A stretch of 30,981 nucleotides of DNA from NCBI RefSeq assembly GCF_003334355.1, contig NZ_QOWP01000038.1. One strand, 5' to 3'. Position numbers and translations under genes: made by a program. Positions 28,665-29,344 of this stretch are shown here, one piece after another; the first letter of the stretch is position 1; the number at the start of each line of letters is the position of its first letter. The notes under the pieces were generated by a model. The model saw nothing but the letters and a program-made list of their open reading frames with translations, did not search any database and was not told the DNA's origin. This stretch comes from Escherichia coli. GTDB lineage: Bacteria; Pseudomonadota; Gammaproteobacteria; Enterobacterales; Enterobacteriaceae.

Positions 28665-28723
28665 CCGTTTAACTCCGTGGTTAATGGGTGAGTGGTATTT
28701 TCAGTTGTGCCGGAGATGTCAGG

Positions 28724-29317
28724 CTATTTGTCCCGGTTGGCTAAGGGATGACACAATTTATTCTTTGTCGCTGATGAGGGGAATTTTTTATAGAGCGTGG
28801 ACAGGCCAATATCAAAAATCAGCGCCACGCGTTGACGTGATTCACCCGCAGCCAGCAACCGTCCTGCCTGTTCCCACTCACTCGCGGTGAGCTTCGGACG
28901 TCTGCCACCAATACGACCTTTGGCTCTGGCCGCTTCCAGTCCGGCGCGAGTCCGCTCGACAATGAGTTCTCGTTCCATTTCAGCCAGGGCACCCATCACA
29001 TGAAAGAAAAAACGTCCCATCGGCGTGCTGGTATCAATGGCATCCGTCAGGCTGCGAAAATTAATGCCGCGTTCGCGCAGCTCCTCAACCAGAATAACCA
29101 GATGCCGCATACTACGCCCCAGCCGGTCCAGCTTCCAGACTACCAGTGTATCCCCCTCCGATAATGTCCTGAGCAGTTTTTTCAGTCCCGGCCTGTCGGA
29201 CTTCGTGCCGCTGATTTTATCCTCAAAAATCAGCTCACATCCTGCACACTCCAGCGCGTTACGCTGCAATTCCGTATTCTGGTCATTTGTTGACACGCGG
29301 ACATAGCCAATAAGCAT
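28724..29317 (-). CDS. Site-specific DNA invertase, serine recombinase (Gin/Pin/Cin/Hin family)
   Basis: 197 aa MLIGYVRVSTNDQNTELQRNALECAGCELIFEDKISGTKSDRPGLKKLLRTLSEGDTLVVWKLDRLGRSM...; catalytic Ser in VRVST, C-terminal HTH (LSTLYKK); near-identical in length and motifs to Mu Gin as recalled. Confidence 0.93.
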   Translation of the reverse strand: MLIGYVRVSTNDQNTELQRNALECAGCELIFEDKISGTKSDRPGLKKLLRTLSEGDTLVVWKLDRLGRSMRHLVILVEELRERGINFRSLTDAIDTSTPMGRFFFHVMGALAEMERELIVERTRAGLEAARAKGRIGGRRPKLTASEWEQAGRLLAAGESRQRVALIFDIGLSTLYKKFPSSATKNKLCHPLANRDK

Positions 29318-29344
29318 GATGGATCCCCTGAATAAAAACCGGGG

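Follow-up and report, generated by a model that had tools for sequence, protein, structure and literature searches.

The DNA invertase at the Z/fun position of a P2-type Escherichia coli prophage: a probable long-resident component of a Gin/Mu-type fibre switch beside an exchangeable tail fibre cassette

Based on the analyses reported here, it is likely that the invertase located between the tail fibre module and the tail sheath gene FI of a P2-type E. coli prophage (Peduovirus, pro483-like) is the ordinary, long-resident recombinase of a Gin/Mu-type fibre switch, that its presence at the Z/fun position follows from its place as the terminal gene of its module, and that the fibre cassette beside it is horizontally exchanged DNA. 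The window (the whole stretch of 30,981 nucleotides that was analysed) consists of E. coli chromosome from position 1 to approximately 21100 (tpiA-cdh-sbp-pfkA-fieF) and contains the right arm of the prophage, read on the minus strand, from approximately 22060 to its end. In order of rising window coordinates, the minus-strand genes are ogr, D, U, T, E/E', FII and FI, followed by a single ORF of 197 aa. The sequence beyond the window end, including the right-hand crossover site and most of the fibre gene H, was taken from the corresponding locus of E. coli DXMF6-3R (L002), which has 0 mismatches to the window over positions 28600-30981 and in which the complete H (439 aa) could be read. Other loci used for comparison were the P2 reference (L001), strain EC31 (L004), PEC414 (L014) and two prophages of strain ARL09/232, one of Fels-2 type (L003) and one lambdoid and situated at dusA (L013). 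The features of the locus are as follows.

22063-22281, minus strand: ogr (from the ORF list)
27474-28664, minus strand: FI, tail sheath gene and first gene of the P2 F operon (396-aa ORF; 98% aa and 97% nt identity to P2 FI)
28665-28761, minus strand: PF late promoter region (coordinates transferred from the P2 annotation via alignment)
approximately 28688-28690, minus strand: P2 transcription start (PF), annotated in P2 (reference positions 6215-6217) and placed here by homology only
28733-28761, minus strand: predicted Ogr activator binding site (P2 reference positions 6260-6288, placed by homology only)
28724-29317, minus strand: serine DNA invertase of the Gin/Cin/Pin/Hin family, 197 aa (Pfam, Mu Gin structures, PHROG 125)
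28724-28756, minus strand: backbone-derived 3' tail of the invertase ORF (last 10 codons, LCHPLANRDK, plus TAG, from PF/Ogr-site DNA)
29232-29299, minus strand: probable recombinational (Fis-dependent) enhancer, assigned by homology to the annotated enhancer of P7 cin
29318-29372, minus strand: spacer between crossover site and invertase start, presumably the invertase promoter and 5' UTR (collinear with Mu, Fels-2, P88 and L003)
29373-29398, no strand: invertase-proximal 26-bp crossover site (sequence, alignment with Mu gix, EC31 inversion breakpoint)
29345-29851, plus strand: silent alternative fibre tip, tip' (PHROG 523/3100 tail fibre, E 9e-67)
29857-29893, no strand: hairpin lying where the converging tip' and tfa genes end, a possible bidirectional terminator (inverted repeat I11)
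29905-30510, minus strand: single tail fibre assembly (chaperone) gene, tfa, in the invertible segment (PHROG 105 'tail fiber assembly', E 5e-74)
30583-30981, minus strand: 3' part (variable tip) of the expressed fibre gene H, running past the window end (ORF; PHROG 327, E 3e-201)

Identity of the invertase and its place between G and FI

Pfam analysis of the 197-aa ORF identified a Resolvase domain (E 4e-52, residues 3-135) and an HTH_7 domain (E 2e-12, residues 138-181), while the Mu Gin structures (PDB 3uj3/4m6f) match residues 1-182 at E 1e-94, the Hin DNA-binding domain (1hcr) matches residues 139-188 and PHROG 125 'DNA invertase' is matched at E 5e-101. The presumed catalytic serine, Ser9, is situated in the motif YVRVSTNDQ, which aligns with Gin residues 5-13, and the C-terminal helix-turn-helix stops near residue 182. 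Amino acid identity is 97% to ORF35 ('DNA invertase') of pro483, 86% to the Fels-2 invertase, approximately 80% to Gin over residues 1-182 (tblastn and pairwise alignment) and 79-80% to Cin. Identity to the invertases of the peduoviruses P88 and ENT90 is 75%, i.e. lower than that to Mu Gin and P1 Cin (80%), while the P88 invertase is itself 86% identical to Gin, which indicates that this invertase family crosses phage families. None of the four proteins was matched above cut-off by a family-level NCBIfam model, and PADLOC returned no defence-family match for the invertase, tip' or tfa; a defence function for the invertase, which had been entertained as a candidate, was discarded on the latter result. 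As far as sequence can address it, the locus is a member of the Gin/Din invertase family by its catalytic domain, by a protein of near-typical length (~190 aa in the family) with a C-terminal HTH_7, by its paired crossover sites and by the inversion seen in natural isolates, with a candidate enhancer besides, and the protein would be expected to catalyse inversion as its relatives do.

In the P2 reference, the homologous interval contains, in order, G, the V-operon terminator, fun(Z), which is encoded on the other strand, the PF activator site and FI. A preliminary description of this locus had placed the invertase and the start of a silent fibre cassette in this interval, a placement which is borne out by the gene order and the P2 annotation. 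A small correction concerns the end of the interval from 28665 to 29344, which is adjoined by no more of the silent ORF than its annotated ATG (29345), as the cassette proper starts just outside, at the core dinucleotide at 29385-29386. The variability of the G-FI region was likewise correctly described, since the region has been published as the Z/fun diversity hotspot (10.1101/2024.10.15.618418).

The module meets the backbone at 28756/28757. Homology to invertase-less P2-like phages stops at 28744-28756, which is the upstream edge of the PF Ogr site, such phages aligning as far as query position 1283, equivalent to 28756. Over window positions 28640-28744 the alignment with P2 contains one mismatch (28708), and the TGT...CCAAC dyad is retained. 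Homology of the invertase to Gin stops at residue 182, and tblastn maps residues 188-197 to positions 6283-6254 of the P2 reference, so that the last 10 codons are derived from promoter DNA. The junction therefore coincides with the PF-side boundary of the hotspot, and in this respect the preliminary description was right. The P2-type invertase phages examined, namely pro483, S164 and the 'P2' of O157:H43 T22 (T22-P2), all of which carry the invertase between fibre module and FI, are collinear across one and the same FI-invertase junction, and in Fels-2, ENT90 and L003 the invertase likewise ends 100-140 nt upstream of FI.

As the gene order of P2 puts PF and FI after the fibre module, the terminal gene of that module necessarily falls in the G-FI interval. 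The Z/fun position of the invertase thus reflects its rank as the final gene behind the invertible segment, the place that gin has in Mu. A locus of this kind is not new: invertases at this position are annotated in Fels-2, pro483 and others, a DNA invertase has been reported as often present in the P2-like Z/fun hotspot with adjacent genes inverting (10.1101/2024.10.15.618418), and inversion has been demonstrated by sequencing and PCR in two P2-like EPEC prophages (Goldberg et al. 2014, PMC4272514). That the Z/fun locus can hold an invertase and that inversion takes place in P2-like prophages are therefore both already known. The terms 'invertase' and 'tail fiber' are absent from the texts of Rousset 2022 (PMC9122126) and of a 2026 P2/P4 preprint.

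Crossover sites and natural inversion of the segment

Read on the minus strand, the left crossover site is TTCTCCCAAACC AA CGTTTAAGAAAA, with its core dinucleotide at 29385-29386, and is located 55 nt upstream of the invertase start. Its partner, TTCTCCCAAACC AA GGTATGCGAGAA, lies off-window inside H at the equivalent of 31063-31088 (core 31075-6), as read in DXMF6-3R. The two 26-bp sites, each an imperfect dyad, are in inverted orientation and have identical inner half-sites (TTCTCCCAAACC) and AA cores; Mu gix, aligned to the left site, is TTCCTGTAAACC GA GGTTTTGGATAA. The outer half-sites, GGTATGYGAGAA in H and SGTTTAWGAAAA beside the invertase, are common to the P2-type and Fels-2 backbones. 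Moreover, the 26-bp site, the spacer of approximately 55 nt, which contains the conserved motif TGGCATSAT, and the 5' end of the invertase gene have collinear homologues in Mu gixR-gin, Fels-2 and P88, and this collinearity argues that site and enzyme constitute one unit.

The 5' coding region of the gene also harbours a probable Fis-dependent enhancer. The cin gene of P1/P7 carries an annotated enhancer within its 5' end, in P7 at nt 19-86 of the gene, for which the homologous stretch of the present invertase is 29232-29299. This stretch, the most strongly conserved portion of the gene, is 78-87% identical at the nucleotide level to cin, gin and the Fels-2 invertase gene, as against 65-77% for the remaining gene, a conservation that is ambiguous by itself given that the same bases encode the catalytic motif. 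Two candidate 15-mers (first base G, last base C) are present at gene nt 22-36 and 71-85, their centres approximately 49 bp apart; the Fis-motif scan is crude and non-discriminating, and the enhancer assignment is founded on homology to the P7 annotation. A simple scan of the spacer (29318-29372) gave no sigma-70 consensus match, and promoter and terminator consensus scans of 28500-30981 gave counts at or below shuffle expectation, with no credible call for an invertase promoter. The hairpin at 29857-29893 (inverted repeat I11: 15-nt arms, 87% complementary, 7-nt loop) was not called by the terminator scan, and Rfam gave no match with E <= 1 over 27000-30981.

The segment between the cores measures approximately 1.69 kb and comprises a single tfa gene flanked by the expressed tip and by the silent tip', whose portion inside the segment begins at 29387. 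An inverted repeat (29480-29644 / 30817-30981; 165 nt, 98%), cut by the window end and extending to 272 nt in DXMF6-3R, begins at the crossover sites and represents the common N-terminal part of both tips. By homology with Gin/Hin, dimers of the enzyme would bind the two inverted sites, the one 55 nt upstream of its own gene and the other inside H, and the synapse would be assembled by the enhancer, occupied by Fis and situated within the initial ~90 nt of the gene. Ser9 would then cut at the shared AA/TT core, whereupon the 1.69-kb segment would flip and the constant part of H (~275 codons) would be joined to either of two receptor-binding tips, which may alter host range.

Inversion of this segment is observed among natural isolates. 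In EC31, the equivalent of window positions 29382-31079 is inverted at 99.9% identity with collinear flanks, and in PEC414 the segment is flipped as well, there in a Fels-2-type backbone. The flipped loci of EC31 and PEC414 fuse tip' in frame to H as intact ORFs of 430 aa and 504 aa, respectively. Both orientations are thus represented among the seven loci that carry this segment, and on two backbones (EC31 versus DXMF6-3R, and PEC414 versus ARL09/232). The switch is therefore active, or very recently was, a conclusion drawn from isolates other than the strain of the window.

These observations bear on the possibility that the invertase is a decaying relic with a promoter-derived C-terminus, the switch frozen and the silent tip a pseudogene. 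The non-native nature of the 10 C-terminal residues would fit such decay, as would the single tfa, which leaves one orientation of the segment without a co-oriented chaperone gene, and the state of S164, in which the inner half-sites are degenerate and the silent tip is lost. Against this, the ORF is intact and retains Ser9 and a complete helix-turn-helix to residue 182, its dN/dS is ~0.05-0.09, the inner halves and cores of both sites match perfectly, and both orientations occur with intact fusion ORFs. A relic is for these reasons extremely improbable.

The resemblance to the G segment of Mu (S-U-[U'-S']-gin, with its gix sites and sis enhancer) extends to the order of fibre, tfa, inverted tip and invertase and to an invertase gene that reads away from the segment, both of which are also found in Fels-2, to the homologous 26-bp site, spacer and 5' coding region, and to the joining of alternative fibre C-termini to a constant N-terminal part. 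The two differ in that (i) the core is GA in Mu and AA here; (ii) the Mu segment is 3 kb and contains both U and U', whereas the present one is 1.69 kb and contains one tfa; (iii) gin is followed by com-mom, whereas the invertase is followed by PF-FI of the P2-type backbone; and (iv) the C-terminal tail of Gin is replaced here by promoter-derived residues. The C segment of P1/P7 (cin), the P segment of e14 (pin) and the Min shufflon of p15B employ the same invertase family and the same logic of fibre-tip switching. However, the cin gene of P1/P7 points into the segment and has cixL overlapping its 3' end, while here, as in Mu, the 5' end of the gene faces the segment. Two tfa genes are found in the relatives pro483, T22-P2, Fels-2, P88 and Mu. 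In canonical segments each tip has its own chaperone, and here two alternative tips are accompanied by one tfa; a remnant of a second tfa was not found, the tip' and tfa stops being separated by just 53 nt. The locus is consequently a reduced variant that works like a G segment.

Probable long residence of the invertase in the backbone

The preliminary description had further suggested that the invertase may itself be cargo from a recombination-prone junction, with the switch put together later (in this model the gene alone was captured at the G-FI junction, the sites and the duplicated tip being assembled around it afterwards), and had put forward a comparison of composition with the neighbouring tail genes as a check. 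In composition the invertase resembles the backbone and is not foreign: its GC content is 53.2% (GC3 56%), at the low edge of that of tail-gene chunks (53-59%), and its dinucleotide distance falls within the null for such chunks. It is the tips and tfa alone that stand out (GC 42-48%, GC3 34-37%), and composition as a sign of a foreign invertase was accordingly dismissed, the feature flagging the cassette instead.

Divergence leads in the same direction. Between the window and L003, Fels-2 and ENT90, dS amounts to 1.36, 1.59 and 1.42 for the invertase, to 1.42, 1.34 and 1.04 for FI, and to 1.12, 1.62 and 1.58 for FII. These values exceed 1 and are near saturation, and they exclude a recent transfer of the invertase between these backbones without proving strict co-descent. 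L003 and Fels-2, whose backbones are close (FI dS 0.86), possess unrelated invertase alleles (pS 0.75), which indicates that invertase alleles are sometimes replaced.

Comparison with the gene that occupies the interval in P2 is also informative. The invertase and fun(Z) occupy one interval, whose PF-side limit is in both cases the upstream edge of the Ogr site. In contrast, fun(Z), a gene of lysogenic conversion and T5 exclusion, has a GC content of 32.8%, hence AT-rich, and runs against the direction of the late genes, whereas the invertase has a backbone-like composition, is co-oriented with the late genes, has no defence match and forms part of the fibre module. With Z/fun cargo it thus has in common the location between G and the PF promoter, and it lacks foreign composition, independent swapping and a defence or host benefit. 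Fels-2 (Felsduovirus; H-G-[G'-H']-invertase (STM2702)-FI) presents the same position between fibre module and FI and shares the outer half-sites, although its invertase is 86% identical at the amino acid level, its core is GA, it carries two tfa genes and its FI is just 69% identical. In pro483 the 97% identical invertase sits at the same backbone junction; the cassettes of pro483 and T22-P2 are different, with two tfa genes each.

Capture of the invertase by itself can call upon the illegitimate nature of the backbone junction, located as it is at the edge of the hotspot, where the ORF runs on into promoter DNA, and upon the frequency of the arrangement. A P2-type FI 5' end together with PF was detected by megablast in 1681 of 5426 complete E. 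coli genomes, and the FI-invertase adjacency in 547 of the 5426 (counts are of genomes, not of loci); of the E. coli genomes that contain a P2-type FI, approximately one third therefore carry the adjacency and two thirds do not. The preliminary description would have given way to a switch that was ancestral and universal in this P2-like clade, and universal it is not (547 versus 1681 genomes). Weighing against capture are the collinear unit of site, spacer, enhancer-bearing 5' end and invertase that is common to Mu, Fels-2 and P88, the layout, which is that of Mu, the conservation of the outer half-sites across genera, an invertase dS equal to that of the backbone genes FI and FII, the backbone-like composition, unlike that of fun(Z), and the lack of a defence-family match. 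Furthermore, among the loci examined there was no intermediate in which either the invertase or the sites occurred without the other. We therefore regard the acquisition of the invertase as cargo, followed by secondary assembly of the switch, as very unlikely; the backbone has probably contained the invertase, along with both outer half-sites, for a long time.

How the switch as a whole entered the backbone is a separate question. An invertase-less P2-type ancestor (H-G-cargo-FI) may have received the entire switch, from the 3' part of H to the invertase, in one recombination event with its right end at the PF boundary, the arrangement later spreading vertically and by homologous recombination. 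Several observations would agree with such an event: all P2-type invertase phages examined share one junction, at which the C-terminus of the invertase is truncated and fused; the H protein of this lineage is just 42% identical to P2 H, N-terminal part included; invertases of this family pass between phage families, those of P88 and Mu being 86% identical (aa); the two tfa genes of P88 match Mu U and U' in lengths and offsets; and P2 is without relics. In P2 itself, tblastn detected of the invertase just the 10-residue promoter-derived tail, and no crossover site with <=7 mismatches was found, although the absence of relics neither supports nor excludes loss in P2. On the other hand, the donor must have been as diverged as the backbone, dS being at least 1.3 to every sampled relative, and Fels-2 and ENT90, in spite of their different backbones, have the outer half-sites and the invertase-FI spacing of ~100 nt in common with this locus, so that one old arrangement is simpler. 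The data fit a switch already carried by the common ancestor of Peduoviridae and a single, early, en bloc acquisition alike, and given the two thirds of genomes with a P2-type FI that are without the adjacency and the lack of relics in P2, ancestry in the P2-type clade is a possibility and no more. We consider such an acquisition possible, albeit clearly less probable than the ordinary long residence of the invertase as the last gene of the fibre module.

Probable exchange of the cassette at the crossover cores

In contrast to the invertase, the segment beside it has moved recently. It is 99.8-99.9% identical in the window and DXMF6-3R (P2-type), L003 (Fels-2-type) and L013 (lambdoid), with 2-4 mismatches per ~1,700 nt, and the same tfa (RefSeq WP_001287324.1) is present in L002, L003, L004, L013 and L014. 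The surroundings are of a different order: the L003 invertase gene is 76% identical to that of the window at the nucleotide level (68-86% in sliding windows) and its FI is 70% identical to the window FI and 91% to Fels-2 FI (aa), while the L013 invertase gene is 52-68% identical (nt) and its flanks are unrelated. Amino acid identity matrices and a 93% blastn block had suggested a horizontal transfer of the invertase between the window and L003. This was rejected, as sliding-window analysis revealed the block to be a chimera of a ~100% identical cassette and a 68-86% identical invertase.

Identity collapses 2-7 nt from the cores, the first flanking mismatches being at 29378 and 31083 in L003 and at 29383 and 31080 in L013, in which identity stops one to three bases outside the cores. 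The complementary situation obtains in pro483, S164 and T22-P2, which retain the invertase and outer sites and carry different cassettes, homology to the window being lost at 29384-29590 and regained at 31062-31147, at or just inside the sites. The recently mobile part of the locus is therefore the cassette between the cores and not the invertase, and the invertase and outer sites form a fixed docking frame. This particular segment is present in just 6 of the 5426 E. coli genomes, and two of the three backbones that bear it reside in one strain (ARL09/232).

The location of the breakpoints at the cores, together with flanks that are diverged or unrelated, favours site-specific exchange over homologous recombination, and the cassette has probably been exchanged through the site-specific chemistry of the invertase itself. 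A more general proposal is that fibre segments behave as integron-style cassettes, whereby a double exchange would be performed by the invertase, or by some other Din invertase that is present in the cell and cross-reacts, at the 2-bp cores and thereby move a whole host-range cassette between unrelated backbones (Peduovirus, Felsduovirus-type and lambdoid), each of which would keep its own invertase and outer half-sites. We regard this proposal as about as likely as not. The route of site-specific exchange goes back to Sandmeier (1994; cited in PMC3945230), and if the proposal is correct, the core-adjacent breakpoints and the presence of two backbones in one strain would constitute direct natural evidence for that route.

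For annotation, these findings imply that a recombinase in the P2-like Z/fun hotspot represents a fixed fibre-switch enzyme as opposed to defence cargo or an independent mobile gene, and in hotspot surveys the fibre cassette and the invertase are best treated as one functional unit. The locus itself is of an already known kind, its single tfa setting it apart from the canonical G-segment layout, and the signature of cassette exchange is the sole aspect that merits follow-up. A cassette that is bounded by the cores to within a few nucleotides and is common to three unrelated prophage types points to a recombinase-defined route for moving receptor specificity, an idea which dates from the 1990s and is of relevance to host-range prediction and tail fibre engineering.

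Divergence from P2 and the flanks of the fibre region

The fibre gene H of the lineage represented in the window was compared with that of the P2 reference.

L002 (E. coli DXMF6-3R locus) 9113-10429: H of the window's lineage, 439 aa
L001 (P2) 9103-11109: P2 H, 669 aa
window 21285-21923, minus strand: 213-aa ORF of low GC content (38-43%), between host fieF and prophage ogr

The two H proteins share just 42% identity, with low similarity even in the N-terminal 'constant' part, and the block that is divergent from P2 sensu stricto therefore comprises all of H together with G and the Z/fun interval (the interval between G and the sheath gene FI in P2). 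At the FI side of this block, the invertase ORF extends at its 3' end into the predicted Ogr activator binding site of PF, the late promoter of FI (window 28724-28761). The invertase and FI share the same orientation and are 59 nt apart, and no convincing terminator was found in this gap; it is conceivable that invertase transcription reads through into the F operon or that Ogr binding is disturbed.

The ORF at 21285-21923, named 'hypothetical protein' in RefSeq, matches the PADLOC model PD-T4-10_B (E 1e-34), while no Pfam or PHROG matches were obtained and a PD-T4-10_A partner was not found adjoining it. This ORF, near the ogr-att end, resembles cargo of the defence type, and the defence-like cargo of the prophage therefore lies outside the Z/fun slot.

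Possible transfer and decay of fibre switches

In E. coli ARL09/232 (NZ_CP049967.1), the window's 1.69-kb invertible cassette is present, at 99.8-99.9% identity, in two unrelated prophages. One, at ybjL, is a Fels-2-type myovirus; the other, at dusA, is lambdoid; both have a diverged invertase of their own.

L003 (Fels-2-type prophage of ARL09/232) 9595-11309: cassette copy
L013 (lambdoid prophage of ARL09/232) 3974-5689: cassette copy
window 29385-30981, on to about 31076 beyond the window end: cassette copy, the invertible segment
L006 (phage S164) 6900-6925 and 8251-8276: crossover sites

Across the three copies, identity stops a few nucleotides from the crossover cores. The peduovirus P88 seems to have received its switch as a transplanted G segment of the Mu type: its tfa/tfa' genes match Mu U/U' in lengths and offsets (P88, L009 2884-3973, versus Mu, L011 2884-3973) and its invertase shares 86% aa identity with Mu Gin; oppositely oriented tail genes, not FI, lie downstream of this invertase. 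Phage S164 retains the invertase and both outer half-sites, yet it has degenerate inner half-sites (TTCTGCTAAACG and TTCTCCCAATTG) and lacks the silent tip, and its switch appears to have become locked through decay.

A single assembly gene in the invertible segment

window 29905-30510, minus strand: sole tail-fibre assembly gene (tfa) of the invertible segment
L004 (EC31) 4875-7429: locus in the flipped state
L014 (PEC414) 2938-5714: locus in the flipped state

Whereas the relatives pro483, T22-P2, Fels-2, P88 and Mu each possess two tfa genes, the window's segment contains one, separated from the stop codon of the silent alternative fibre tip (tip') by just 53 nt harbouring a hairpin. In the flipped EC31 and PEC414 loci the H::tip' ORF is intact and the single tfa is antisense to it. 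A flipped phage may require tfa in trans or not require it at all, or may be non-infective.
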